DNA of 64,000 nucleotides from an uncultured Acidobacteriota bacterium (GTDB lineage: Bacteria; Acidobacteriota; Polarisedimenticolia; Polarisedimenticolales; DASRJG01). A model generated the notes under the pieces. It made no database searches. It had not been told where the DNA came from and saw nothing but the letters and a program-made list of their open reading frames with translations. Below, piece by piece: positions 5,560-57,656 of this stretch. The stretch spans positions 16,944 through 80,943 of the forward strand of contig CAYLHQ010000013.1 of NCBI GenBank assembly GCA_964383585.1, written 5' to 3'. Numbering within the stretch: position 1 is the stretch's first letter; each line of letters begins with the position of its first letter. The translations under genes and the position numbers were made by a program.

Positions 5560-6126
5560 GTGAACGTCTTCGACTGGATCGTCGTCGTGGCCGGCACCGT
5601 GTGGATCCTCCTCGGCTTCGCGAAGGGAGCGGCGCGGATCTCGTTCGGGCTCCTCGCGCTCGTCGCCGGGTTCTTCGTCGCGACCCGTTTCCAAGACCTG
5701 GTCGCGGCGAGGATCGTGAACGTCGGGATCGGAACGGGTCCCGCCGCGGTGCTGTCCTGGGCGGTGCTCTACCTCGGGACCGTCGCGGCCGGAGGCTTCG
5801 CGGGATGGGCCTTCTCGCGGGCGCTCCGGGCGGTGGAGCTCGGTTGGGCCGACCGGATCGGGGGGGCGTCGATCGGGGTCGTGGCGGGGGCGCTGTTCGC
5901 CGCCGCGCTCGTCCACGCACTCGCCGCGTCCCGCGACCTCGGCCCTCGCGCGCTCGGCGGGTCCCTCCTCGCTCCCTACGCGGCGGCCCTCGCCGATTTC
6001 GGGAACGCCGCCGTCCCCGAACGGCTGGCGGGGCGGTACCGGGAGGGGGTGGAGGCGGTGCGGGTCCTCTGGCGGGCCGAGCGCGAGCGGACCGACCGCA
6101 GCCCGGAAGCGGGGGCGCAGGAGTGA
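5560..6126 (+). CDS. cvpA: CvpA-family membrane protein
   Basis: N-terminus MNVFDWIVVVAGTVWILLGFAKGAARISF and four hydrophobic segments are typical of the colicin V production (CvpA) family. Confidence 0.75.
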   Translation: MNVFDWIVVVAGTVWILLGFAKGAARISFGLLALVAGFFVATRFQDLVAARIVNVGIGTGPAAVLSWAVLYLGTVAAGGFAGWAFSRALRAVELGWADRIGGASIGVVAGALFAAALVHALAASRDLGPRALGGSLLAPYAAALADFGNAAVPERLAGRYREGVEAVRVLWRAERERTDRSPEAGAQE

Positions 6127-7658
6127 TGGAACCGCGGGTGCGGATCACGCGGCACTTCCCCCGGCCGTTCGCGAGCATCCTGACCTCCGCCCGGACCTGC
6201 TACTCGGGGAAGGGGATCGTCGAGGACTCGGATCTCAAGCCGGGAAACGAACTCCTCGCGCGCGACCTCTACGAGGCGGGCCACCACACGACGATCCAGC
6301 ACGCCTACTTCCAGTTCGCGATCGAGAACGTCTCGAGGCAGTTCCTCTGGTCGTTCCTGCACGCGCACCCCTTCTACAACTCGGAGCAGGTCTCGCAGCG
6401 GTACGTCAAGGTGCGGCGGACGAACTGCTTCGTGCCGCCCCTTTCGGGGGAGGCCCTCGAGGTCTACCGGGAAGGTCTCGACGAGCAGACGGCCTTCTAC
6501 CGGGAGCTGATCGAGCGGCTCACCCCGCTCGCGGAACACGCCTACGACGCGCGCTTCCCCGCGCGGAAGGCAAAGCGCGAGAGATACGGGAAGGAGATCG
6601 AGAAGAAGGCCCAGGAGATCGCCCGCTACGTCTTGCCCGTTGCGACCTTCGCGGTCCTCTACCACACGGTCTCGGCGCTGACGATCCTGCGGTACTGGAG
6701 GATGTGCGAGCAACTCGACGCTCCGTACGAGCAGCGTCTCGTGGTGGGGAAGATGGTCGAGGCGCTTCTCGAGGTGGACGGCGAGTACCGGCGCCTCCTC
6801 GAAGACCCGATCCCGCTCGCGGATACTCCCGAGGCGCGTTTCTTCGACGAGCGGCCCGCCCTCGCGGCGCCCGCGAGCCGGGCGGCCTTCGTCGCCGAGT
6901 TCGACGCATCGCTCGAAGGGCGCGTGTCGAAGCTCGTCGACTGGAAGGTGCGGGGCGAAGAAGAAACGGCGCGCGCGGTGCGCGAGGTGCTCGGGGTTCC
7001 CTCTTCGGCCCTTTCCGACGACGAGGCGGTCGCGCTCGCCGCTTCTCCCGCCGCGAACCCGATGCTCGGCCAGGCGCTCAACGTCTCGACCTTCGACAAG
7101 CTGACCCGCGCGATGCACCACCCGGCGTACACGTTTCGGAAAAAGATCTCGCACGCGGCGGATAGCCAGGACCAGCGGCACCGCATGACGCCGGCCTCGC
7201 GCCCGATCCTCGCGGCGCACGCGACCGGAGAGCCCGATTTCGTCACGCCGCGCCTCGTCAAGGAGGACCCCGACGTCGAGCGCCGGTACGTCGAGATGAT
7301 GGGCCGGATCTGGGAGCGGATCGGCAGGCTCCGGCGGCTCGGGGCGGGGGCAGAGTTCGCGAACTACCTCCTTCCCAACGCGGTCGCGGTGCGGTTCACC
7401 GAGTCGTCCGACTTCCTGAACCTCCGCCACAAGCACGTGATGCGCCTGTGCTATCTCGCGCAGGAGGAGATCTGGCAGGCCTCGGTCGACGAGGCCGAGC
7501 AGGTTCGCGCCGTCCACCCACGCCTCGGCGCCTGGCTCCTCCCGCCCTGCTCGATGCGGAAGGCGGCCGGCACCAAGCCGTTCTGCCCCGAGGGGGCTCG
7601 GTTCTGCGGGGAGCCGGTGTGGAACTACCGGATGGACCAGTACCGGAGGGTGATCTGA
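6126..7658 (+). CDS. thyX: FAD-dependent thymidylate synthase-like protein, tandem ThyX-fold (about 510 aa)
   Basis: ATG overlaps the cvpA stop (TGATG). First half has GHHTTIQHAYFQFAIENVSRQFLWSFLHAHPFYNSEQVSQRY (ThyX signature with HAH in place of RHR). Second half has HHPAYTFRKKISHAADSQDQRHRM and LRHKHVMRLCYLAQEEIWQ. Confidence 0.7.
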   Translation: MEPRVRITRHFPRPFASILTSARTCYSGKGIVEDSDLKPGNELLARDLYEAGHHTTIQHAYFQFAIENVSRQFLWSFLHAHPFYNSEQVSQRYVKVRRTNCFVPPLSGEALEVYREGLDEQTAFYRELIERLTPLAEHAYDARFPARKAKRERYGKEIEKKAQEIARYVLPVATFAVLYHTVSALTILRYWRMCEQLDAPYEQRLVVGKMVEALLEVDGEYRRLLEDPIPLADTPEARFFDERPALAAPASRAAFVAEFDASLEGRVSKLVDWKVRGEEETARAVREVLGVPSSALSDDEAVALAASPAANPMLGQALNVSTFDKLTRAMHHPAYTFRKKISHAADSQDQRHRMTPASRPILAAHATGEPDFVTPRLVKEDPDVERRYVEMMGRIWERIGRLRRLGAGAEFANYLLPNAVAVRFTESSDFLNLRHKHVMRLCYLAQEEIWQASVDEAEQVRAVHPRLGAWLLPPCSMRKAAGTKPFCPEGARFCGEPVWNYRMDQYRRVI

Positions 7659-7660
7659 AC

Positions 7661-8700
7661 GGGGTCAAGTCTCGTTTCGGGACATTCCTCTAATTCCTGA
7701 GCCCGGCGAGTCAGAGCCCACCGAACGCCCTTGTCTTTCCCCGGTGCGCTCTCCATCTTACGTGCAGGTCCCGGCCTCCCCCACGGAGCCACGATGGCTC
7801 GACCTCTTCGACTGGAAGCCCCCGGCCACTTCTTCCACGTGTTGGCGCGCGGGAACGCCAAGCACCCCATCTTCCTCGACGACCGGGATCGAGAGCGTTT
7901 TTTGGACACCCTCGGCGAAGCCGTGTTCCGCTTCGAGGTGAGATGCCACGCCTACTGCCTCATGGCGAACCACTACCACCTCCTGCTTCAGCCGATGCGG
8001 GAAACCCTGTCGCGCGCGGTGCGCCACTTGAACGGCGTGTACTCGCAGCGGTTCAATCGGAGGCATGAGCGCGTGGGGCATGTGTTCGCGGGACGATTCA
8101 AAAGCCCTCTCGTGGACCGAGAGCATTACCTTCTGGCGCTCTGCCGTTACATCGCGCTCAATCCGGTCCGATCGGGTGCGGTCCGCGAGCCCGCGGACTG
8201 GAAATGGAGCGGTCACCGTGCCCTGGTGGGGATGGATACCGCTCCGGACTGGTTGACCGTGGATGAGGTGCTGCAGGCGTTCGATCCGCGCGGCGACGGT
8301 TTCGCTCGGCATGCCTACGCTCGTTTCGTCGAAGAGGGAATCCGCCCCGACCGCGCGTCGGAGTTCGCCGAGCTCGATCGAGCTGCGGATCTCGGCGGCA
8401 TCCTGGGGCGCTCGGAGTTTATCGCAGGTTTTTCCCGGAGACTCGATCGCTCACGACGCAATCGCGAGCATTCGAAGCGCGAGCGATTCGCGGACCGCCC
8501 CCCGCTCGAGCGGATTCTCGAGGCGAGCGAGTGCGCCGGCCTCGTCGGCCGCATCGAAGCGGCACGGTGCGACCACGGGTATTCGCTGGACGAGATCGGT
8601 CGCGTACTCGGCATTGATCGGAGAACGGTGGTTCGCCTCGTTCGAGCGTCGAAGGTCGAAGGAAGAATTGTCGAAATGTCCCACTTCAAGACTTGACCCC
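7661..8700 (+). mobile_element. RAYT / IS200-like unit bounded by 37-nt imperfect inverted repeats
   Basis: Left 7661-7697 is GGGGTCAAGTCTCGTTTCGGGACATTCCTCTAATTCC. The reverse complement of 8664-8700 is GGGGTCAAGTCTTGAAGTGGGACATTTCGACAATTCT. 25/37 positions are identical, in three blocks. The unit encloses the Y1 transposase gene. Confidence 0.7.
7794..8696 (+). CDS. REP-associated tyrosine transposase (RAYT) / IS200-like Y1 HUH transposase with C-terminal DnaA-C-like HTH
   Basis: HUH motif in CLMANHYHLLLQP. Catalytic Tyr motif LCRYIALNPVRSG. C-terminal GYSLDEIGRVLGIDRRTVVRLV. Noticeably more A/T-ending codons than the neighbouring genes. Confidence 0.85.
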   Translation: MARPLRLEAPGHFFHVLARGNAKHPIFLDDRDRERFLDTLGEAVFRFEVRCHAYCLMANHYHLLLQPMRETLSRAVRHLNGVYSQRFNRRHERVGHVFAGRFKSPLVDREHYLLALCRYIALNPVRSGAVREPADWKWSGHRALVGMDTAPDWLTVDEVLQAFDPRGDGFARHAYARFVEEGIRPDRASEFAELDRAADLGGILGRSEFIAGFSRRLDRSRRNREHSKRERFADRPPLERILEASECAGLVGRIEAARCDHGYSLDEIGRVLGIDRRTVVRLVRASKVEGRIVEMSHFKT

Positions 8701-8749: not shown

Positions 8750-10408
8750 ATGATTCGTTCGCATTCGGCCGTCCTGGCCCTCGCTCTGACCCTTTCCTGC
8801 GCGGGCCCCGCGGCGCCGCCGCCCGCGGAATCCCGGCCCGAGATCCCGCTCTACGAGGGGCTCGGCCCCCACGTCCGCAAGGTGACGACAGAATCCCCAA
8901 AGGCCCAACGGTACTTCGATCAGGGGCTGAACTTCCTCTATGGCTTCGACCACGACGAGGCGATCCGCGCCTTCAAGAAGGCCGCGGAGATCGATCCGTC
9001 GTGCGCGATGGCCCACTGGGGCGTCGCCTACGCGAACGGGCCCCACATCAACAACGCGGTCGTCCCCGAGTCGCGCGAGAAGGCCGCCTACGAGGCGGTC
9101 GCCGTCGCGCGGCAGCATCTCGACGGGGCGACGGCAATTGAGGAGGCCCTCGTGGAGGCGCTCGCCGCCCGCTACGCCTGGCCGCAGCCGGAGGACCGGG
9201 GGCCGCTCGACCGGGCGTTCGCCGAGGCGATGAAAGGGGTGTGGGCCGCCCACCCGGACGACCCCGACGTCGGCGCACTCTATGCCGAGGCGCTCATGGA
9301 TCTCCACCCGTGGGACCTGTGGAACCACGACGGCACGCCGAAGGAGTGGACGCCGCCGATCGTGGCGCTCCTCGAGGAGGTCCTCGCGAAGGCGCCCGCG
9401 CATCCGCTCGCGCTCCACCTTTACATCCACGCCGTCGAGGCGTCTTCCGCGCCGGGACGGGCCGACGTCGCCGCCGACAGCCTTCGCGACCTGATGCCCG
9501 GCCTCGGCCACATGGTCCACATGCCGTCGCACATCGACGTCCGCCGCGGCCGCTGGGAGGAGGCGATCGTCGCGAACACGAAGGCGATGGCGGCGGACCA
9601 CGCCTACCAGGAGAAGTCCCCCCAGCAGGATTTCTACCGCCTCTACATGGCGCACAACCACCACATGCGCGCCTTCGCCGCGATGATGGTGGGGAAGAGC
9701 GCCCTTGCCCTCGACTCGGTCCGCGAGATGGTCGCCGAGATGCCGGAGGACTGGCTCCGGGAGAACGCCCTGTGGGCCGACGGCTGGGTCGCGATGCCGA
9801 TCGAGGTCCTCATGCGCTTCGGGCGGTGGGAGGAGATCCTCGCGGAGCCGGAGCCGCCCGTGTACCTGCCGCACTCCCGCGCCCTCCGTCATTACGCGCG
9901 CGGGGTCGCGTACGCCGCGACGGACAGGGTCGTCGAGGCGCGCGCGGAGCAGGAGTTGTTTGTCGAGGCGCGCACGAAGGTGTCTCCCGACGCGACGTTC
10001 GGGAACAACAAGTCCTCGGACATCCTCGGGGTTGCCGAGGCTCTCCTCGAAGGGGAGATCCTCTACCGGGCGGGGGAGCAGGAGAAGGGGTTCGCCGTTC
10101 TGCGCGAGGCCGTGAAACGCGAAGACGCCCTCCGCTACGACGAGCCGCCCGACTGGATCCAGCCGGTTCGGCATCCCCTCGGAGCGGCGCTCCTCCAGTC
10201 GGGCCGGTACGAGGAGGCGGAGCAGGTGTTCCGCGAGGATCTCGCGAGACTTCCCGGAAACGGCTGGTCGCTCTTCGGCACGGGCCGCGCGCTGCGTCTC
10301 CAGGGGAAAGGAGCCGAAGCGGTGGTGTACGAGGCACAGTTCACCGACGCGTGGAAAGAGGCGGACGTGAAGATCGCCTCCCCGTGCTTCTGTCAAAGAG
10401 GGGTATAG
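8750..10408 (+). CDS. TPR-repeat lipoprotein
   Basis: GAGAGGAGG Shine-Dalgarno before ATG 8750. Lipobox LTLSC. TPR-like helices (YFDQGLNFLYGFDHDEAIRAFKKAAEIDP). Confidence 0.7.
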   Translation: MIRSHSAVLALALTLSCAGPAAPPPAESRPEIPLYEGLGPHVRKVTTESPKAQRYFDQGLNFLYGFDHDEAIRAFKKAAEIDPSCAMAHWGVAYANGPHINNAVVPESREKAAYEAVAVARQHLDGATAIEEALVEALAARYAWPQPEDRGPLDRAFAEAMKGVWAAHPDDPDVGALYAEALMDLHPWDLWNHDGTPKEWTPPIVALLEEVLAKAPAHPLALHLYIHAVEASSAPGRADVAADSLRDLMPGLGHMVHMPSHIDVRRGRWEEAIVANTKAMAADHAYQEKSPQQDFYRLYMAHNHHMRAFAAMMVGKSALALDSVREMVAEMPEDWLRENALWADGWVAMPIEVLMRFGRWEEILAEPEPPVYLPHSRALRHYARGVAYAATDRVVEARAEQELFVEARTKVSPDATFGNNKSSDILGVAEALLEGEILYRAGEQEKGFAVLREAVKREDALRYDEPPDWIQPVRHPLGAALLQSGRYEEAEQVFREDLARLPGNGWSLFGTGRALRLQGKGAEAVVYEAQFTDAWKEADVKIASPCFCQRGV

Positions 10409-10537
10409 GGGACATTCCGCTTTTAGAAAAAGTAGAAAAAGGGGACAGGCAACTTTTCCCAGCCGCCCGGGTTGCGGTACTTCCCGGGCGGCTGAGAAAA
10501 GGTGCCTGTCCCCTTTTTCTAAAAGCGGAATGTCCCC
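10408..10537. repeat. 130-bp AT-rich nested palindromic element (REP/MITE-like), termini GGGGACATTCCGCTTTTA
   Basis: Paired segments of 24+13+7+11 bp with 2 mismatches, a 9-nt bulge (duplicated TAGAAAAAG) and an 11-nt loop. It spans exactly from the G of the upstream TAG stop to the C of the downstream CTA (minus-strand TAG). Confidence 0.9.
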
Positions 10538-11820
10538 TAAGCCTTGATCGTTTCCAACCCATGGCCTCGCGGGCTCATCTCTTCGCGTCTGAGCATCCAC
10601 GCGAAAAAGAAGCCCAGGAAACCGAGCACGGAGAAGATCCACATTCCGAGCGCGTACCCGCCGGGGTTCTCGGCCGACGCGTGGGAGACGTCGTTCGCCC
10701 AGCCGATCGCCTGGTTCATTCCGGCGAGGCCGATCTGCTGGATGAGCGTCATGAGGGCGTAGGCGCTGCCGAGCCGCGTCGGGTCGACGATGTAGGCGAC
10801 CGACGGCCACATCACGGCCGGGATCAACGAGAACGCGACTCCCATGAGCGCCATCGGAACGATCGGCGGGATGTCGGTGTACACGAGCATGAGGTAGACC
10901 GGCATCAGGAGGAACGAGCCGACCATCATGAAGAGCGACCGCTTCCCGACGCGATCGACCAAAAGACCGAACAGCGGGGTCGCGAACATCGCGGCGAAGG
11001 GAAGGGCGCTGTTGAGCGCGCCGGCCGCCTCGCGCGTCATCCCGTGTCCTTCGATGAAGAACTTGATCGCGAACGATCGGAAGGGAAAAATCGCCGAGTA
11101 AAACGTGATGCAGAGAGCGACGATGAACCAGTACGAGCGGGAGAAGGAGAAGATCTCGCTCCAGACGAGTCGGTCCATCTCGCCCGCCGCCCCCAGGGAG
11201 TACCTCCGTTCCGCATGCTTCTCGAACGCCCAGTAAAGCACTCCGGCGACGACGCACAGGAGTCCGATCGCGGCTCCGATCCAGAGCGGACCCTGCCAGC
11301 CGCTCGCGTACGCGCGGCCGGCCCAGGTGGGGGAATTGTCGGCGGCGACCGACCCGAGGCGGGCGATCGTCAGGTTGACGCCGAAGGCGAAGCTCAGCTC
11401 CTTTCCGCGAAACCACTTGGCGAGCCCCGTCGTGACGGCGACGATCAGCGGCTCCGCCCCGATCCCGAGGAGAACGCGCCCCGCCGCCATCACGGGAAAC
11501 TCCGGGGAGATGGCGGTCACGACGCCGGCGACGGCGCAGATCGTGCCGAAAAGGACCGTCGAGAGGGCGGCCCCGAACCGGTCGATCAGGACGCCTCCGA
11601 TCAGCAGAACCACGATCGCCGCGACGCTGTAAACGGAGTAGAGCTGCCCGATCTGCGAATCGCTGAAGCCGAGGTCGGACTTGAGCATGTCCGCGACGGG
11701 GGCGATCGTGTCGTAGACGTAGTAATTCCCGAACATCGCGAGGCTGACGAGCAGGAGGACCGTCCACCGGAAGACCGTGGGCGGAGGAGGGCGAAGGGAA
11801 GGATCTGCGGTTCCGTTCAT
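10537..11820 (-). CDS. MFS transporter
   Basis: About 12 predicted TM segments. MFS-like loop motif GGVLIDRFG. Confidence 0.85.
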   Translation of the reverse strand: MNGTADPSLRPPPPTVFRWTVLLLVSLAMFGNYYVYDTIAPVADMLKSDLGFSDSQIGQLYSVYSVAAIVVLLIGGVLIDRFGAALSTVLFGTICAVAGVVTAISPEFPVMAAGRVLLGIGAEPLIVAVTTGLAKWFRGKELSFAFGVNLTIARLGSVAADNSPTWAGRAYASGWQGPLWIGAAIGLLCVVAGVLYWAFEKHAERRYSLGAAGEMDRLVWSEIFSFSRSYWFIVALCITFYSAIFPFRSFAIKFFIEGHGMTREAAGALNSALPFAAMFATPLFGLLVDRVGKRSLFMMVGSFLLMPVYLMLVYTDIPPIVPMALMGVAFSLIPAVMWPSVAYIVDPTRLGSAYALMTLIQQIGLAGMNQAIGWANDVSHASAENPGGYALGMWIFSVLGFLGFFFAWMLRREEMSPRGHGLETIKA

Positions 11821-14581: not shown

Positions 14582-15769
14582 CTATCCGCGGCCATGCTCG
14601 CGATGGAACGTCTCTCCCCGAATACGCGCGCGGAGGGCCCGCCAGAGGTCGTACACACCTCCGACCCCCGCGGTTCCGCCCAGGATCGTCTCGAAGCGGG
14701 CGTGGTCTCGCGAGATCGACGCGCGTGCGAGGGCGTCCATCGCCGACTCGAGGCCCGCCGCGACCTCGGCCGTCCACGCCCTCGGTACGCGCGCGGCCCC
14801 GTCTTCGACGACGATCGGCTCCCCCCACAGGCAGAGTGCTTCCGGAGTGCGCTCCTCCCAGAAGGCGTACTCGATCGCGAGCGGGAGGATGGTCCCGCCG
14901 CGCAACCGTCGGGCGGCGTGGCCCACCCCGTCGAGGAGGGTGACCGGGCGCTCCCGGACGTCCGTGAAGCGTCCCTGGGGTGTGATCCAAAGGGCGGTGC
15001 CTGGCCGCGCGAAGATCTCCTCGGTCGCACGAAGGAACGCCGCGGCGCCGCGCCGGGTCCCCGGCTCCACGCCGAAGAAGCCGATCCTCGCGAAGAACCG
15101 GTAACGGGCGAGCATCGCCGCCTCGATCGGGGCGTAATGCTCCCGCTCAGGCAGATACCTCTCGGCCAGAATCAGCCCGACGAGAGGGTCCCACCATCCG
15201 GGATGGTTCGTGGCGACGAGAAGCGACCCGTCGGCGTGGATCGAGGGGAATCCCGGCTGCGCGACGCGCAACGCGTGGAAGCTCCTGCGAACGTAACGGC
15301 GCGCGTACCACCGGAACCACGCAAGGAGTCGCAGCGTGACGCGAATCGTGGGGACGGGAGGATCGAGGGACGTCGCCGAAGTCGCGGTGGGATTTGGGGA
15401 TTCCCTTTCCGCGCCGATCGGAACCTCCGGCTCGCGACTTCGCGGCACGGGCTTCGCGGCGGAACTCTCCGACCCAGCGCAACTTCGGCCCCGTGCGCGG
15501 CGCGAGTTCTCCCCACCGTTCGCGTCACCTTGAAGGAGCGGCAGCGTGACGCGAATCGTGGGGACGGGAGGATCGAGGGACGTCGCCGAAGTCGCGGTGG
15601 GATTTGGGGATTCCCTTTCCGCGCCGATCGGAACCTCCGGCTCGCGACTTCGCGGCACGGGCTTCGCGGCGGAACTCTCCGACCCAGCGCAACTTCGGCC
15701 CCGTGCGCGGCGCGAGTTCTCCCCACCGTTCGCGTCACCTTGAAGGAGCGGGGATTGAGGAATTTTCAT
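14582..15769 (-). CDS. PlsC-type acyltransferase (CrtO-like candidate) carrying a 140-codon in-frame repeat insertion after codon 6
   Basis: NHPGWWD acyltransferase motif and the following domain. The ATG at 15769 directly abuts the TAA of the upstream gene. Residues 7-146 are two identical 70-aa low-complexity units encoded by the 210-bp tandem repeat. Confidence 0.7.
   Translation of the reverse strand: MKIPQSPLLQGDANGGENSRRARGRSCAGSESSAAKPVPRSREPEVPIGAERESPNPTATSATSLDPPVPTIRVTLPLLQGDANGGENSRRARGRSCAGSESSAAKPVPRSREPEVPIGAERESPNPTATSATSLDPPVPTIRVTLRLLAWFRWYARRYVRRSFHALRVAQPGFPSIHADGSLLVATNHPGWWDPLVGLILAERYLPEREHYAPIEAAMLARYRFFARIGFFGVEPGTRRGAAAFLRATEEIFARPGTALWITPQGRFTDVRERPVTLLDGVGHAARRLRGGTILPLAIEYAFWEERTPEALCLWGEPIVVEDGAARVPRAWTAEVAAGLESAMDALARASISRDHARFETILGGTAGVGGVYDLWRALRARIRGETFHREHGRG
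15331..15540. repeat. 210-bp tandem repeat, copy 1 (MITE-like unit with 19-nt terminal inverted repeats)
   Basis: Nucleotide-identical to 15541-15750. Internal TIR: GTGACGCGAATCGTGGGGA (15336-15354) versus TCCCCACCGTTCGCGTCAC (15510-15528), 17/19 complementary. Confidence 0.92.
15541..15750. repeat. 210-bp tandem repeat, copy 2
   Basis: Perfect copy of 15331-15540. AAGGAG occurs at 15323-15328, 15533-15538 and 15743-15748. Confidence 0.92.
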
Positions 15770-15787
15770 TTATCGAGGAATGTCCCC
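15751..15787 (-). repeat. AT-rich junction element related to the RAYT left end (GGGGACATTCCTC...ATTCCTCA)
   Basis: The minus strand reads GGGGACATTCCTCGATAAATGAAAATTCCTCAATCCCC. Compare the RAYT left flank GGGACATTCCTCTAATTCCTGA. It supplies the last 5 codons and TAA of one gene and the ATG plus 6 codons of the next. Confidence 0.65.
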
Positions 15788-18681: not shown

Positions 18682-20222
18682 ACCGCCTCGGCCAGATCCG
18701 GATGCGGCCGGACCGAGGAGACGATCTCGGCCCAACGGTTGTCGAGGCCCATGTCCTCGAGCAGGAGCCGGGACGAGATCCGCGCCGATTCGAAGATGAC
18801 GGGAAGCCCGCTTCCGGGATGGGTTCCCCCGCCGACGAGGTACATCCCGTCGAGATCCTCGAACCGGTTGTGGGGGCGCAGGTGGAGCATTTGACCGAGA
18901 TTGTGCGCCAGGTTGAACGTCGCGCCTTTGTGAATCTCGAAGGAGGCGTCCCAGTCGTCGGGGGTGATGCACCGCTCGAAGCGAACGCGCTCCTCGACCC
19001 CGGGGAATCCGAGCCGCTCGACCTGCCGGAGCACGACGGAGCGGAAACGCTCCTTCTCCTTCGCCCAGTCGACGTTGGGGTGCCGGTGGGTGACCGGGGC
19101 GAGGACATAGAGGGTCGACATCCCCGCGGGCGCCAGGGTGGGGTCGGTCACAGAGGCGTTCTGCACGTACACCGACGGGTCGTCGCTCAGGACGTGGCGA
19201 CGCTCGATGTCGTCGAGATTCCTCCGGTAGTCTTCCGCGATGTAGATGTTGTGGTGGTGGGGGGCGTCGTAGCGCCCCTCGATCCCCAGGTAGAGCATGA
19301 AGGTCGAGCACGAGAATTTCTTCCGGGCGATCTTCCGTTTCGTCCAGCGGCGCCGGAGAGAGTCGGGAACGAGCCGCTCCATCGCCCGCGCGAAGTCGGC
19401 GTTGACCACGAGCGAATCCAACGCGTATTCGCCGGCGGGGGTCCGCACGCCGACTGCGCGGCGGCTGCGGAAGACGATCTCCACGACCGGCTCCCCGAGA
19501 CGGATCTCCACCCCGAGACGCTCGGCACATCGCGCCATCGCGTCGGAGACGGCGTTGCATCCTCCCATCGGATGGTACACGCCGTGCTCGTATTCGAGGA
19601 AGGACAGAATCGTGAAAAGGCTCGGGCAGCGGAACGGGGACATTCCGAGGTACTTCGACTGGAAGGAAAAGGCGAGCCGGATCCGCGGGTCGGAGAAGTA
19701 GCGCGAGAGGTCGGAGTCGACGCTCTTCGTCGGCCGGAGCCAAGGGAGGGCGCCGAGGAGGGAGGGGTCGAGGAGGGCGGTCCACGAATCGAACGGCCGC
19801 TCGAGAATCGGCCGGAAAGCCTCGAGCTTCGCGCGGTTGTCGGAGAGGAACGCTCGGAACCTCGGGGCGTCCCCGGGCGCGATCGCGGCGATCTCCGCCT
19901 CCATCCGGGCCACGTCGGCGGTCGCGAGGATCTCCCCCCCTCCGCCGAACACGAGGCGGTACTGCGGGTCGAGACGCTTCATTGGCATCTCGTCCCGGAG
20001 ACGGAAGCCGCACGCCTCGAAGATCTCGTTGAGGATCCTGGGATAGAGAAAAAACGTCGGCCCGACATCGAACCGAAAGCCATCTTCCTCGATCGCCGAG
20101 GTCCGGCCGCCGACCCGTTCGTTCCTCTCGAGGACCGTCACGTCGAGCCCGGCGCGGGCGAGGAGCATCGCCGAAGCGAGACCCCCCGGACCGGCACCCA
20201 CCACGACAACTTTTTTCGCCAT
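18678..20222 (-). CDS. CrtI-family desaturase (CrtN/phytoene-dehydrosqualene desaturase-like)
   Basis: [15 protein letters not shown] Rossmann motif. [31 protein letters not shown] and [14 protein letters not shown] are typical of CrtI/CrtN. Confidence 0.88.
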
Positions 20223-35197: not shown

Positions 35198-37282
35198 TCA
35201 CGGAGGCGGCGCGCCCCCGGCGGCGCCCACCGTGAGACCCGCGACACGGTCGAGATCCACCGTCTTCCCGAGCAGCACCAGGTGGTCTCCGGGTCCGATC
35301 TTCCAGTCGGGTCCGACCGGTGCGAACTCGCGCTTCAGCTCGCCCTCGGTGCGCCGAACCGCAAGGACGAAGACCCCGTACTTCCCGTACGGGTCGGCGT
35401 CGCCGAGCGTCTTGCCTTTCCAGTGCTCCGGGACTGCGACCTCGCGGATGTTCAGGTCTCCCGCGCGGCGCGCGCTCTCGGCTTCCCCCGCACTCCCCGC
35501 CTCGAGGAAACGTGCGAGGAGCACGCGGCGGCGGACGACCTCCCGGTCGAGCGCGGCGACGACGTCCCTTCGCGCGACGGTTCCGAGGAGACGGTCGGGG
35601 TCCTGGGCGCTGACGACCGGAAGCTGCGCCAGCTCGAGACGGGAGAACCGGCGCATCACGTCGTCGAGCGGGGTGCGCGGCGTCAGGCGCGGGACGTCGC
35701 GTACGAGGTCCATGGCGGTCCTCTCGCGCCGGAGCGAAGGGTCTCCCGCGACCTGGAAGGCGTCGCGGAGGTCGATCGCTCCGACGAGCCGGTCCTGGGC
35801 GTCGAGCGCGTAGACGGCAGTCTGGCGGGTGGAGCCGAACCGGTCCAGTACCTCGCCGAGAGGGGCGTCCGCGCGGACCGTCATCGGGTCCGTGCGGATC
35901 AGGTCCTCGGCGCGGAGCGTGGCGAGGGCCATTTCCTCGAAGGCGAGGTCGAAGTCGATGCCGCGGCGCCTCAACGACTCGGTGTAGATGGAATCCCGCC
36001 GGAGCTGCCTCGCGACCCAGGTCGAGGTCACGACGACCGCCGCGAGCGGCATGACCGAGCCGTAGTTCTGGCTCGTCTCGAAGACGATGACGAGGGCCGT
36101 GATCGGCGCGAACGTCGTAGACGCGATCGCGGCGCTCATCCCACCGAGCGCCCAGAAGACCGAGGAGACGCCGAGGGCGGGGAAGACCGCTTCGACGCCG
36201 AGCCCGAACAGGGTCCCGCCGGCCGCCCCGACGAGGAGGGCGGGGGTGAACACTCCGCCCGATCCTCCCGACCCGAGCGAGGCCGAGGTCGCCGCGATCT
36301 TCGCGAGCACGAGGGGGAGGAGCATCGCGGGCAGGACCCCGCCGGAGACCACCTCCCGCACCGCGTCGTAGCCGTTCCCCCAGACCTCGGGGATGAAGAC
36401 GGCGAGGATGCCCACCACGAGCCCCCCGAGCGCCGTCTTCACCGGGAGCGGCGCCCGCAGGCGGGCCGCCGCGCTCGACACCCCCTCGATCCCCGAGCGG
36501 AGCAGGAGGCCGGTCCACGCGACCAGGGCGCCGAGGAGGGCGAAGAGCGGGAGGGAGAGGAGGGACGGGGCGTGCTCCGACGGGACCGGGTAGAGTGGAG
36601 CCGAACCGAACGCGCCCCACGAGATCATCGTCGACGTGACGGCGGACATCACGACCGGGCCGAAGACCTCGAGAGCGAAGTTCCCGTGCACCACCTCCAT
36701 CACGAACATCGCGGCGCCGAGCGGTGCGTTGTACGAGGCGGCCATCGCGGCCGCAACGCCGCACCCGATCAGGATCCGCCGCCGCTCGACCGGGGCCTTC
36801 AGCTTCGAAGCGAGCCGCGAGGCGGCGGCCGCGGCGATCTGCACGATCGGTCCTTCCCTCCCGACCGAGCCTCCGGTCGCGTTGAGGAAGACCGAGGCCA
36901 CCGACTTCCCGACCGTCCGACCGAGATGGAGGCGCCCCGACCCGCGCAGGGAGACCGCCTCCATGATCTCGGAGACTCCCTCTCCGGTGGAACCCGTTCT
37001 TCTCCGGATCGAGGAGACGATGAGTCCCGCGACGAGTCCCCCGGCGGCGGGTCCCAGGATGCGCCGAGGGATCCCGAGCCTTCCGGCGACCTCGAGCGGC
37101 TCGCCCGTGTCCCAGAAGACGAGGGCCTGGAAGCCGAGCCCGAGATACCGGACCCCCACGGCGACGAGCGACCCGAGGAGACCGGCCCCGACGACGAGCG
37201 CGATCGCGTACATCCGCTCGTCGGTCCGGAAGCGGATCCGAACCCGTTGCCAGAGGTCGGCCGCTCGGCGCAAAGGGGTCAA
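35198..37282 (-). CDS. ClC chloride channel with C-terminal CBS pair and TrkA-C-like domain
   Basis: GSVGREGP, GLPAM-like and GGVFTP selectivity motifs. CBS-like repeats. TTG start in a TTGA overlap with the upstream stop. Confidence 0.88.
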   Translation of the reverse strand: MTPLRRAADLWQRVRIRFRTDERMYAIALVVGAGLLGSLVAVGVRYLGLGFQALVFWDTGEPLEVAGRLGIPRRILGPAAGGLVAGLIVSSIRRRTGSTGEGVSEIMEAVSLRGSGRLHLGRTVGKSVASVFLNATGGSVGREGPIVQIAAAAASRLASKLKAPVERRRILIGCGVAAAMAASYNAPLGAAMFVMEVVHGNFALEVFGPVVMSAVTSTMISWGAFGSAPLYPVPSEHAPSLLSLPLFALLGALVAWTGLLLRSGIEGVSSAAARLRAPLPVKTALGGLVVGILAVFIPEVWGNGYDAVREVVSGGVLPAMLLPLVLAKIAATSASLGSGGSGGVFTPALLVGAAGGTLFGLGVEAVFPALGVSSVFWALGGMSAAIASTTFAPITALVIVFETSQNYGSVMPLAAVVVTSTWVARQLRRDSIYTESLRRRGIDFDLAFEEMALATLRAEDLIRTDPMTVRADAPLGEVLDRFGSTRQTAVYALDAQDRLVGAIDLRDAFQVAGDPSLRRERTAMDLVRDVPRLTPRTPLDDVMRRFSRLELAQLPVVSAQDPDRLLGTVARRDVVAALDREVVRRRVLLARFLEAGSAGEAESARRAGDLNIREVAVPEHWKGKTLGDADPYGKYGVFVLAVRRTEGELKREFAPVGPDWKIGPGDHLVLLGKTVDLDRVAGLTVGAAGGAPPP

Positions 37283-38088
37283 GCCTCGTCGTCCCCCTCG
37301 CCGCCGAGCCAACGCGCGGTCAGCTCGGCGCGAAGGTGTTCGAACGCCTCGTCGACCGTGTCGGTGATTCGGAACAGCTCGAGATCTCCGGGCGAGATCG
37401 TTCCCCACTTCACGAGCGCGTCGAACCGGAGGACGTCCTCCCAGAACTCCCGGCCGTAGAGGACGATCGGCACCTTCTTCGTGCTCTTCCGCGTCTGCAC
37501 GAGAGTGAGGAGCTCCACGAGTTCGTCGAGCGTGCCGAACCCGCCGGGGAAGACGACGAGCGCCTTCGCGAGGTAGACGAACCAGAACTTCCGCATGAAG
37601 AAGTAGTGGAATTCGAAGGCGAGCTCGCGCGTGATGTAGGGATTCATCGTCGGCTCGACGGGGAGGCTGATCCCGAGTCCGATCGAGATTCCCGAGGCCT
37701 CGGACGCGCCGCGGTTCGCGGCCTCCATGATTCCGGGCCCTCCGCCGGAGCAGACGATGAACCGCCGGTGGTTGTTCGGCGCGAGCCCTTTCGACCATTC
37801 CGTCATCCGGCGGGCAAGTTGCCGCGCGTCCTCGTAATACCGGGCGAGGCGAAGCGCGGCCTCGGCGCGGGAGATCGTGTCCCGGTCCCCTCCCGCGCGG
37901 GCGGCGCGCATCCGCTCCTCCGCCTGTTCGGGAGGGAGCGCGCGCGCGGAGCCGAAGAAGACCACCGTGTCCTTGACGCGGTAACGGGCAAAACGGGCCT
38001 GCGGCTCGAGGTACTCCGAGAGGATGCGGAGGGTGCGCGCGTCTCGGCTGTTCAGGAAGTCGAGGTTCTTGTACGCCTTCTCTACCAT
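37279..38088 (-). CDS. LOG-family (TIGR00730) nucleotide phosphoribohydrolase
   Basis: GGGPGIMEAANRGA and PGGFGTLDEL motifs. Internal ATG 38088. Confidence 0.88.
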   Translation of the reverse strand: MVEKAYKNLDFLNSRDARTLRILSEYLEPQARFARYRVKDTVVFFGSARALPPEQAEERMRAARAGGDRDTISRAEAALRLARYYEDARQLARRMTEWSKGLAPNNHRRFIVCSGGGPGIMEAANRGASEASGISIGLGISLPVEPTMNPYITRELAFEFHYFFMRKFWFVYLAKALVVFPGGFGTLDELVELLTLVQTRKSTKKVPIVLYGREFWEDVLRFDALVKWGTISPGDLELFRITDTVDEAFEHLRAELTARWLGGEGDDEA

Positions 38089-38188: not shown

Positions 38189-38719
38189 ATGCGACTTCGT
38201 ACATGGGCTCTCGCGGCATTCGGTTTCGGCGCCGCCTTCGCCGCCGACGGGGCGGGGGGGGCGGCCGGGAAGGTGCAGGCCCCGTCGTTCGAGCTCCGAG
38301 GCTCGGACGGCGCGATCCACCGGCTATCCGACCACGCCGGCAAGCGTGCGGTCGTCCTCGCCTGGTTTCCGAAAGCGTTCACCGGCGGTTGCACGGCCGA
38401 ATGCAAGTCGCTCCGTGAGAGCGGCGCCGCGATCCGTGAGTTCGAGGTTGCCCTGTACGCGGCAAGTTGTGACGACGCGGAAACGAACCGGAAATTCGCC
38501 GCGTCGCTCGATCTCGACTACCCGATCCTCAGCGATCCCGGCTGCGCGATTGCCCGCGCCTACGGGGTGGCGACGGAGGGGTCGAGCTACGCCCAGCGCG
38601 TCACCTTCTACATCGGCCCGGACGGGACGATTCTCGACGTCGACCGGTCCGTGAAAGCCTCGACTGCCGGAAACGACATCGCCGAACGCCTCACTGCCCT
38701 GGAGGTCAAGAGGAAATAG
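38189..38719 (+). CDS. secreted peroxiredoxin (Bcp/AhpC-TSA family)
   Basis: Signal peptide, then WFPKAFTGGCTAEC peroxidatic Cys motif. Confidence 0.85.
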   Translation: MRLRTWALAAFGFGAAFAADGAGGAAGKVQAPSFELRGSDGAIHRLSDHAGKRAVVLAWFPKAFTGGCTAECKSLRESGAAIREFEVALYAASCDDAETNRKFAASLDLDYPILSDPGCAIARAYGVATEGSSYAQRVTFYIGPDGTILDVDRSVKASTAGNDIAERLTALEVKRK

Positions 38720-38871
38720 GGGACATTCCGCTTTTACTTCTAAAGGTTGAATAGAAAAAGCGGGAGCGAAAAAGGGACTGGCACCTTTTCCGGTCTCCGG
38801 AAAAGGTGCCAGTCCCTTTTTCGCTCCCGCTTTTTCTATTCAACCTTTAGAAGTAAAAGCGGAATGTCCCC
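38719..38871. repeat. 153-bp perfect palindromic AT-rich element (75-bp arms, 3-nt loop), termini GGGGACATTCCGCTTTTA
   Basis: Base-by-base pairing was checked from 38719/38871 inward to 38793/38797 with no mismatch. It fills the gap between convergent genes, starting with the G of the TAG stop. Confidence 0.93.
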
Positions 38872-57336: not shown

Positions 57337-57338
57337 AC

Positions 57339-57382
57339 GGGGACAGGTTACTTTTTTTGGGCTCAAAAAGTAACCTGTCCCC
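57339..57382. repeat. 44-bp perfect hairpin GGGGACAGGTTACTTTTT-loop-AAAAAGTAACCTGTCCCC, related to the inner module of the 10408 element
   Basis: 18-bp perfect stem with an 8-nt loop. Compare GGGGACAGGCAACTTTTCC inside 10408-10537. The loop contains the stop of the upstream small ORF. Confidence 0.85.
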
Positions 57383-57656
57383 GATGCCTTCGGCGGTGCC
57401 CCGCGATCTCCCGGCGGCGGATCGCGAGGACGGCGCGGAGCCCGGTGAAGAGCCAGACCACCGCGAGACACGCGAACCCCGACTTCGAAACGATCCCGCC
57501 GAACGGGTGGAGGGCCATGGGAAAGCCGGCGCTTCCACCCACGAGCGCGCCGACTCCGTAGACGATGGCACGCGGCCGTTCTTCGCCTCGGACACTCTCG
57601 TGAGCGAGCCCGGCACGTCCGATCGTCGAACCGGCCGGCCGATGCTCGGGCGCCAT
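57363..57656 (-). CDS. small membrane protein (about 97 aa), C-terminus and stop encoded by the hairpin element
   Basis: High GC3. Two hydrophobic helices (IVYGVGALVGGSAGFPMAL, GFACLAVVWLFTGLRAVLAI). The last codons GGG GAC AGG TTA CTT TTT TGA lie in the element. The start is uncertain (57656 or 57689). Confidence 0.5.
   Translation of the reverse strand: MAPEHRPAGSTIGRAGLAHESVRGEERPRAIVYGVGALVGGSAGFPMALHPFGGIVSKSGFACLAVVWLFTGLRAVLAIRRREIAGHRRRHRGQVTF

Follow-up and report, generated by a model that had tools for sequence, protein, structure and literature searches.

A 64-kb stretch of the bacterial contig CAYLHQ010000013.1, the whole of which we call the window, encodes immediately downstream of thyX a Y1 transposase that is enclosed between long terminal inverted repeats (TIRs). 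We consider it likely that this gene and its ends form a TIRtron, the name given to RAYT-like genes (relatives of the transposases associated with repetitive extragenic palindromes, REPs) that are flanked by long TIRs and whose products are termed TIRYTs (Di Nocera, De Gregorio & Rocco 2013, BMC Genomics 14:522, PMC3733652); that the TIRYT encoded here resembles subclass 2.1 of the TnpA_Y1 transposases and is fixed in its present lineage; and that the palindromic elements scattered through the window come from a second TIRYT subfamily. The evidence consists of the fold and motifs of the protein, the conservation of its ends across many phyla, the divergence of the cassette in step with its neighbours and the better fit of the palindromes to the ends of another transposase.

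Catalytic domain and fold of the transposase

In Pfam the product of the gene is recognised as Y1_Tnp, with 42.9 bits (cut-off 23) and an E value of 6.4e-11, and in an alignment of 35 homologues both H60 and H62 of the HUH motif (NHYHLLL) and the catalytic Y119 (RYIALNPVR) are invariant. A phmmer search of the PDB with the protein sequence returned no match and a comparison of the family profile with the PDB returned marginal ones; hence, relatives of solved structure were recovered by a search at the level of the fold. A confident AlphaFold (AF2) model was built on the family alignment (predicted local distance difference test, pLDDT, 89.9); the solved structure that Foldseek ranks first for it is 4ER8, the Escherichia coli TnpA_REP in complex with a REP hairpin (E 8e-7, TM-score 0.72 on the target), after which rank the TnpA proteins of ISDra2, IS608 and IS200. 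The Y1 transposase with HUH and tyrosine motifs that the first-pass annotation of this DNA had read from the sequence is borne out by these results. Its wider label, RAYT/IS200-like, holds for membership in the Y1 HUH superfamily and for a fold nearest to 4ER8, but not for the RAYTs proper: the protein scores 72.9 bits against the cut-off of 80 of the NCBIfam RAYT equivalog NF047646 (REP_Tyr_transpos), and REP hairpins are lacking. The E. coli RAYT aligns with it along 39 residues only, and the published TIRYTs sml1152 and sml4509 share 41-46% identity with it over the catalytic domain.

C-terminal to a helical linker we place a putative helix-turn-helix (HTH) at about residues 250-298, a region that is helical in the model; at E 0.006, a profile search with the family aligned residues 242-284 with HTH domains of the DeoR type. 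This part of the protein had been likened to the C-terminal domain of DnaA; Pfam calls no DnaA-C here, but such C-termini are regarded in the literature as related.

Terminal inverted repeats of published type

Over their 37 nucleotides (nt) the two arms (Table 1) match at 27 positions, in blocks of 12 (the outer one, which is perfect), 8 and 5 nt together with two isolated positions; the repeats first described at these coordinates are thus confirmed, with the count of matches raised from the 25 given then. Counted over 36 nt (7661-7696 and 8665-8700), the arms are 75% complementary. As had also been noticed, the right arm encodes the end of the gene, with the TGA stop at 8694-8696; it lies 50 nt upstream of the start of a tetratricopeptide repeat (TPR) gene. 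The ATG of the transposase gene is 133 nt downstream of the start of the left TIR. Inverted repeats of about 75% and such length are not rare in DNA of 70% GC, a 29-nt pair of 76% being present inside the gene itself. The case for a genuine repeat therefore comes from its persistence in the orthologues and across the family, and not from the pairing score alone.

In the 64 kb of the window the outer 12-mer is found at the two flanks of the gene only. It corresponds to the GGGGWSAS motif published for TIRtrons: the form in the window, GGGGTCAA, agrees with it at 7 of 8 positions (the last base being A rather than S), and the orthologues as well as 52 of the 58 left arms of the family have GGGGTCAG, a GGGGWSAS form. 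Because the flanks are TIRs of this published type, the gene belongs to the TIRYT/TIRtron class, and the repeat, which at first seemed to be of an unrecognised kind, is one that has been described; the 12-mer in this context was not found in the literature searched. As a motif in its own right GGGGWSA is uninformative here, since the DNA of the window is 70% GC (57 sites against about 68 expected).

We found no conserved pairing within the arms when all position pairs, about 500, were compared in 108 arms (maximum z 3.3); therefore the ends are terminal inverted repeats and not hairpins of the REP type. A weak GTCT...GGAC stem of 4-6 base pairs (bp) can be read in the arms of the window lineage. 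The TIR was considered as a hairpin substrate on account of this stem, which occurs in some lineages, and of one compensatory change in the right arm of L005 (L numbers designate the loci and contigs compared), and was rejected as the position-pair test on the 108 arms was not significant. No consistent target-site duplication was seen at the flanks by inspection only, with no formal analysis, and neither the repeats nor the palindromes were covered by a known RNA family when the whole window was scanned against Rfam at the gathering threshold.

Conservation of the ends across a phylum-spanning family

A survey in which one genome per species was scanned with the family alignment yielded at least 80 loci with 37-47% protein identity, hosted, among the matches listed, by Nitrospirota, Gamma- and Betaproteobacteria, Acidobacteriota, Desulfobacterota, the Candidate Phyla Radiation (CPR), Elusimicrobia, Omnitrophota and others; a homologue search in which at most 8,000 candidates were scored recovered more than 4,000 homologues. 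The TIRYTs form a very large, phylum-spanning group of relatives of the REP-associated transposases. The survey loci listed and the orthologues together comprise 94 gene copies, and 73 of these have the 11-mer GGGTCA[AG]GTCT, mostly with a preceding G, at the expected place, 40 of them on both sides (again among the matches listed). Typically the left 11-mer lies 45-53 nt 5' of the ATG and the right one at or just past the stop; in members of the L052 and L074 type the leader is 46 nt long. Beyond position 14 the arms diverge between loci and yet agree within each locus, with identities over positions 13-30 of 66% within a locus versus 39% between loci. Many distant members nonetheless have (G/A)CATTCC at positions 21-28, and C-termini of the form ...FKT* (TTCAAGACTTGA) recur in the distant homologues P0020, P0046 and P0048. 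With 12 nt that remain unchanged while protein identity falls to 40%, the end of the cassette is a specific candidate for the binding or cleavage site of these enzymes.

The same alignments suggest a further role for the left arm. Of 45 left arms, 29 have TTG at TIR positions 12-14, and TANNNT follows 16-18 nt past TIR positions 12-17 in 26 of 45 left arms as against 3 of 41 right arms. By this pattern the left arm apparently doubles as the -35 region of a promoter in most family members.

Some members of the family are evidently mobile. Second copies that are nearly identical (94-100% in nucleotides) lie within 20 kb in L036, L051, L056, L071 and L088, and L103 has two gene-less mini-elements (miniature inverted-repeat transposable elements, MITEs) of 83-93 nt with 27-nt TIRs that carry the full 12-mer. 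A homologue on a Legionella adelaidensis plasmid, annotated as "transposase", is flanked by the 12-mer with one mismatch, although full-length homologues on plasmids come to 1 record in 72,556. The family thus spans two lifestyles, with mobile multi-copy members on one side and a fixed, selected lineage on the other.

Two kinds of rearrangement were seen at cassettes of this family. L051 has, at 9948-11776, two 100% identical cassettes head to tail with one 25-nt TIR copy common to both. Elsewhere tandem duplication, two- to fourfold, is a frequent feature of the ends of the cassettes (L047, L057, L067, L068, L074, L081, L084, L087, L091, L102, L104 and L108), in units of 22-72 nt made up of a few bases of the outside flank and the first 15-20 nt of the TIR, as with ggatacgcGGGGTCAGGTCTTGC, which occurs twice in L084. 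Because the boundaries of these units vary, the duplications look like slippage and not like the work of a fixed cleavage site.

Fixation beside thyX

The cassette lies directly 3' of thyX in six lineages (the window, L003/4, L005, L120, L006-8 and L118/9), the orthologues in this position sharing 87, 85, 68, 56 and 54% protein identity and all of them keeping both arms. In the window, L005 and L006 the next gene downstream is the TPR gene; at the other loci the open reading frame (ORF) in that place is cut off or unannotated. Relative to L003 the synonymous divergence (dS) of the cassette gene is 0.275 and that of thyX 0.308; relative to L005 it is 0.434 against 0.421 for the TPR gene. As the dS of the cassette gene equals that of its neighbours and its ratio of nonsynonymous to synonymous divergence (dN/dS) is 0.19-0.27, the cassette is fixed, vertically inherited, under purifying selection and immobile in this Acidobacteriota-like lineage. 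Selection appears to maintain the TIRs along with the protein. Its protein diverges faster than those of the neighbours (56% identity between the window and L006, versus 75% and 87%). The G+C content at third codon positions (GC3) of the gene is 0.748, compared with 0.89-0.92 in four neighbouring genes, in agreement with the greater use of A/T-ending codons first remarked on, and this lower value recurs in all orthologues.

The window is contained in the JGI metagenome contig Ga0484859_0000198. About 75 kb of the contig were read, made up of the 64-kb window, 8.8 kb downstream and 2.2 kb upstream (L001), and neither the window nor the further 11 kb contain the gene a second time or the 12-mer anywhere else than at its two flanks. 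The inner core GGGACATTCC is retained in the subclade with at least 68% identity (the window, L003, L005 and L120), and it is altered in both arms together in L006-8, to GGGAAGTTCT, which is also the inner core in the assemblies GCA_041597275.1, GCA_041630555.1 and GCA_041636215.1. In L118 it reads GCGGCAAGTC/GCGGCATTCT. A -10-like TATNCT is conserved 3' of the right arm in all orthologues; at the arms of the window, no sigma-70-like promoter or terminator was found.

The palindromes and a second TIRYT subfamily

The 10-mer GGGACATTYC occurs at 8 sites in the window where 0.25 are expected, and no shuffle reached 8. The sites are in both arms of the gene, at the four tips of the palindromic elements 10406-10539 and 38719-38871, at a solo tip (15777-15786, minus strand) and at 19637 (plus strand), which substantiates the initial observation that the central block of the repeat is the tip sequence of elements then placed at 10408, 38719 and 15787. 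The tips of both palindromes read GGGGACATTCCGCTTTTA(G/C), and the stop codons of convergent genes either adjoin these palindromes or are supplied by them. Neither the palindrome at 10406 nor that at 38719 has the outer 12-mer, which is not dispersed in the window. Among the relatives, the element at 10406 is present at the same site in L005 (85% identity) and absent in L006 (56%). No palindromes, GGGGAAGTTC-tipped or other, were seen on the L006-8 contigs, each of 2-3.5 kb; no further tips or second Y1 gene lie in the 8.8 kb downstream and 2.2 kb upstream of the window; and a search of other genomes of the family for collapsed copies of the inner TIR gave chance-level or degenerate matches only.

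A metagenome scan with the 18-nt tip of the palindromes recovered 24 contigs, all foreign to the source sample, many of which contain elements of about 100 nt with inverted ends of about 30 nt (GGGGACATTCCGCTTTTATCTTCAATTCCT...) around variable centres. On one of them, L010, a different Y1 gene is situated between two such ends. Its product has 235 residues and no HTH and is a member of a large family. It shares 36% identity with the window protein in the catalytic core and, along its whole length, 41-49% with dau2153, gbm2474 and rba2408, TIRYTs from the literature. Y1 genes of about 211-235 codons with TIRs that begin (A)AAGGGGACATTC are found in L010, L113, L114 and L115; within 10 kb of L113, a contig of an Acidobacteriota metagenome-assembled genome (MAG), there are nine tips, some of them in small palindromic pairs. 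At 22 of 23 nt the left TIR of L010 agrees with the tip of the 38719 element (GGGGACATTCCGCTTTTAC...). To judge from these matches, the GGGGACATTCC-tipped palindromes most likely derive, in the manner of MITEs, from this second TIRYT subfamily, the gene for which would lie outside the window.

The first-pass annotation had taken the transposase and the dispersed repeats for an enzyme and its cognate non-autonomous family. What stands of this is the inner block that the gene's ends share with the palindromes; the pairing itself fares less well, as the palindromes do not have the 12-mer and their tips fit the L010-type TIRs better. Moreover, about 88 loci of the family to which the window gene belongs (among the matches listed) do not have GGGGACATTC, the single match there being at the level of chance. 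Because these loci lack it, homologues of the transposase do occur without such repeats at the level of the family, an outcome named at the outset as one that would count against the proposed pairing.

The two types of end are nevertheless related to each other. The right TIR of L114 reads GGGGACATTC-tgcttttttc-TCTAATTCCTATAG, and the window TIR, after its outer 18 nt, reads GGGACATTCC-TCTAATTCCT; two blocks of about 10 nt in the same order in both are too much to be due to chance. Candidate origins of the shared blocks are a common ancestor of the two TIR types, patchwise exchange with the abundant palindromes by recombination, and selection that favours one recognition core in both. There are thus two TIRYT subfamilies with related ends, of which one is tied to abundant palindromic MITEs in Acidobacteriota.

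Several further features of the metagenome contigs are worth recording. Elements with GGGGACATTCC ends and unrelated, non-palindromic centres of 30-45 nt are found in L015, L018, L019, L021, L022, L026, L029, L032 and L113. These elements of about 100 nt are usually framed by AAAA...TTTT, whereas the copies in the window are near-perfect nested palindromes. In L022, a 2.9-kb contig without a Y1 gene, TCTAGACTTGACCGG at 700-730, about 45 nt past a GGGGACATTCC element, contains the reverse complement of GGTCAAGTCT, which belongs to the other TIR type.

A possible mode of action

From the architecture of the protein we infer that it would recognise the 12-mer at both ends, most likely by means of the HTH acting on duplex DNA or on the duplex of snapped-back arms. 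By analogy with TnpA_REP and the TnpA of IS608, the HUH/Tyr119 centre might then cut and rejoin single-stranded DNA through a 5'-phosphotyrosine. In typical members of the family, where the left TIR would provide the -35 box of the promoter, binding of the ends would be expected to repress the transposase's own gene.

Weighing the alternatives

A number of observations weigh against the picture of a TIRtron with its own ends, fixed beside thyX and distinct in origin from the palindromes. The C-terminal HTH scores below the thresholds of Pfam (HTH_23, 20.7 bits against a cut-off of 24.6; HTH_38, 20.0 against 27), and the persistently low GC3 of the gene could hint at a foreign origin or at different selection. 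Biochemistry of any TIRYT was not found in the literature searched, for which reason the proposed modes of binding and cleavage are an extrapolation of what holds for TnpA_REP and IS608. Autoregulation is not directly transferable to the copy in the window, because its left TIR is without the TTG of a -35 box, its leader is 133 nt long and no sigma-70 promoter is recognisable. The single copy of the gene and the lack of an L010-type gene hold for the roughly 75 kb of the genome that were read. Finally, the two-block likeness to the L010-type TIRs makes a functional link between the gene and the palindromes possible.

Such a link is the substance of the alternative that deserves the most attention, though we regard it as rather unlikely: the enzyme would be a domesticated, RAYT-like one whose cognate family is the GGGGACATTCC-tipped palindromes, recognised through the inner block GGGACATTCC...AATTCCT and copied in the style of REPINs (REP doublets forming hairpins) and RAYTs, possibly as a takeover of another subfamily's MITEs. 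It accounts for the enrichment of the 10-mer and for its presence at both flanks of the gene as well as at every palindrome tip; the second block, TCTAATTCCT, is likewise common to the L010-type TIRs and the MITE tips, and palindromes accompany the subclade with the GGGACATTCC core in both cases in which the flanks can be seen, the window and L005. Like RAYTs, the gene is present in a single copy, keeps its synteny and is subject to purifying selection; the perfect 153-nt palindrome suggests recent activity; and the 75 kb read contain no L010-type gene. Yet the palindromes are devoid of the 12-mer, which is the sole part of the gene's ends that is conserved family-wide, while the MITEs that the gene's own family does possess, in L103, bear the full 12-mer TIR. 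The tips fit the L010-type TIRs at 22 of 23 nt and the ends of the window gene over 10-11 nt, an L010-type gene co-occurs with dense tips in L113, and there is the absence of GGGGACATTC at other loci of the family. Were the link nevertheless real, it would amount to a long-term association of the REPIN-RAYT kind outside Proteobacteria, in which a fixed TIRYT mobilises or controls palindromes in trans via the shared core. Its ends would in that case fuse the 12-mer of the family with the recognition core of another subfamily's MITEs, and the cores of the arms would co-evolve with the resident repeats, as GGGACATTCC here and GGGAAGTTCT in the sister lineage. We hold this extension to be as doubtful as the premise, and cross-mobilisation of the palindromes by the window gene to be improbable to a like degree.

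Two further explanations concern the cassette itself. That it is an autonomous TIRtron akin to an insertion sequence (IS), horizontally acquired and still mobile in this genome, would fit its TIRs, the GC3 below that of its neighbours, the identical or nearly identical second and tandem copies (94-100%) in other genomes, and a patchy spread over many phyla with one copy on a Legionella plasmid; but six lineages, with protein identities as low as 54%, have the cassette at the same site adjoining thyX, its dS matches that of the flanking genes, the 75 kb read contain no further copy of gene or 12-mer, and full-length plasmid homologues are very rare, all of which makes this highly unlikely. Scarcely credible, in our estimate, is a catalytically idle relic whose flanks are retained to serve thyX and the TPR gene as promoters or terminators, rather than as transposase substrates. 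The position of the arms, the left abutting the thyX stop and the right just upstream of the TPR start, and the TATNCT conserved 3' of the right arm in all orthologues would be in keeping with this. Against it stand the invariance of the catalytic residues with the dN/dS given above, the presence of the 12-mer beside homologues across phyla in unrelated gene contexts, and the failure to detect promoter- or terminator-like sites at the arms. Taken together, these considerations favour a fixed TIRtron accompanied by palindromes of a second subfamily as the probable interpretation of the locus.

Neighbouring genes and other repeats of the window

Table 1. Coordinates of the TIRtron and of the related palindromic elements in the 64-kb window
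Feature	Position	Strand	Remarks
Left TIR	7661-7697	+	begins 2 nt past the thyX stop; kept in L003, L005, L006-8, L118 and L120
Outer 12-mer GGGGTCAAGTCT (family form GGGGTCARGTCT)	7661-7672	+	corresponds to the published GGGGWSAS TIR motif
Inner TIR blocks GGGACATTCC and TCTAATTCCT	7679-7698	+	resemble L010-type TIRs and palindrome tips
TIRYT gene	7794-8696	+	300-residue ORF; Y1 HUH catalytic domain, helical linker and putative C-terminal HTH
Right TIR	8664-8700	-	inverse of the left; overlaps the last seven codons (EMSHFKT) and the stop
Nested palindromic element, 134 nt, tips TAGGGGACATTCCGCTTTTAG	10406-10539		between convergent genes; both tips supply TAG stops
Solo TIR-like tip GGGGACATTCCTCGATAAATGAAAATTCCTCAATCC	15752-15787	-	encodes the last codons (GDIPR) and stop of an amine-oxidase-like gene
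Perfect palindrome, 153 nt (75+3+75, 100% complementary), tips GGGGACATTCCGCTTTTACTTCT	38719-38871		

The nearest named homologue of the ThyX protein (78%) is from Candidatus Polarisedimenticolaceae, Acidobacteriota, an indication of lineage drawn from one protein. The ThyX homologue has 510 residues (6126-7658), and homologues of 505-538 residues are widespread in Acidobacteriota, Gemmatimonadota and Nitrospirota MAGs; the usual length of ThyX is about half of this. In L006 and L118, the TAG stop of thyX overlaps the first G of the TIR.

The tips of the repeats repeatedly provide the last codons or the stop of adjacent genes (10406-10408, 10537-10539, 38717-38719, 15770-15787 and 8676-8696), for instance as the TAG derived from TAGGGGACATT on each side of the 10406 element and as GDIPR* at 15770-15787. 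Two more occurrences, of GGGGACATTCC at 19636-19646 and of the one-mismatch GGGGTCAAGCCT at 37275-37286, have neither an inverted partner nor any additional similarity and are probably chance matches. Adjoining the solo GGGGACATTCC tip at 15787, a 210-nt unit is present in two tandem copies, 99% identical, at 15323-15742 inside a minus-strand ORF call, each unit being bounded by 19-nt inverted repeats (GTGACGCGAATCGTGGGGA / TCCCCACCGTTCGCGTCAC).

We also observed a perfect 19-bp hairpin, CGGGGACAGGTTACTTTTT...AAAAAGTAACCTGTCCCCG, at 57338-57383. Related modules, GGGGACAGGCA(A/C)CTTTTC and GGGACTGGCACCTTTTCC, are nested within both palindromes (10441-10459, 10495-10513 and 38775-38815), and the GGGGACAGGCACCTTTTC module comes after the tip in the metagenome contigs L024 and L028 too. 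This set of hairpin and modules appears to constitute another repeat family of the GGGGWSAS type, with agreement at 9 of 12 positions of GGGGTCAGGTCT; no transposase was identified for it.

Comparison with known systems

Among described systems the TIRtrons are the closest. Their published features are GGGGWSAS in the TIRs, a 3' TIR that overlaps the gene and, for some of them, moderately abundant TIR families, and acidobacterial examples are included (PMC3733652). The window gene shares with them a RAYT-like Y1 transposase longer than canonical RAYTs, long TIRs that replace the REP hairpins, a start of the GGGGWSAS type, a 3' TIR over the end of the gene and the identity to sml1152 and sml4509 noted above. 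It differs in that none of the 12 published sequences compared (of the 35 aligned) has the full-length, HTH_23-type C-terminus of the window protein. The conserved end of 12 nt, its position over the promoter, the fixation beside thyX and the two-block likeness between groups go beyond the original description (Di Nocera 2013).

In the classification of TnpA_Y1, subclass 2.1 is defined by a C-terminal domain like Bac_DnaA_C, HTH_23 or HTH_28, the absence of REPs nearby and a patchy distribution over phyla, and its authors equate it with the TIRYTs (Quentin, Siguier, Chandler & Fichant 2018, BMC Genomics 19:475, PMC6006769). With its Y1 core and putative HTH-type C-terminus the window protein resembles this subclass, to which we assign it by domain architecture and TIR motif alone. 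A point of difference is that no REP-like repeats are reported there, whereas the inner TIR block of the window is shared with dispersed palindromes.

The resemblance to the RAYTs, represented by the E. coli TnpA_REP (YafM, 4ER8), extends to the closest solved fold, the single copy (in the 75 kb read), vertical inheritance and purifying selection, and that to the REPINs to the inverted flanking repeats and to long, palindromic, doublet-like elements in intergenic DNA. The REP, RAYT and REPIN systems are reportedly the subject of work by Nunvar in 2010, Bertels and Rainey in 2011 and Ton-Hoang in 2012. However, the gene in the window is not flanked by short, imperfect hairpins headed by GTAG/CGTC, and no pairing signal is seen within its arms; the protein falls below the equivalog cut-off and has an extra C-terminal region of 150 residues that includes the HTH; and the outer repeat of the gene is not abundant in the window.

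Elements of the IS200/IS605 group (IS608, ISDra2 and IS200) have subterminal hairpins in direct orientation and no TIRs, and their TnpA, of about 130-150 residues, has no HTH. They share with the window gene the HUH/tyrosine fold, and relatives of the gene are multi-copy as well; in contrast, its ends are inverted repeats without hairpins, its protein has 300 residues with an HTH, and the copy is immobile. Thus, the locus is best regarded as an ordinary though informative member of the TIRYT class as already described, and it leaves that category unchanged.

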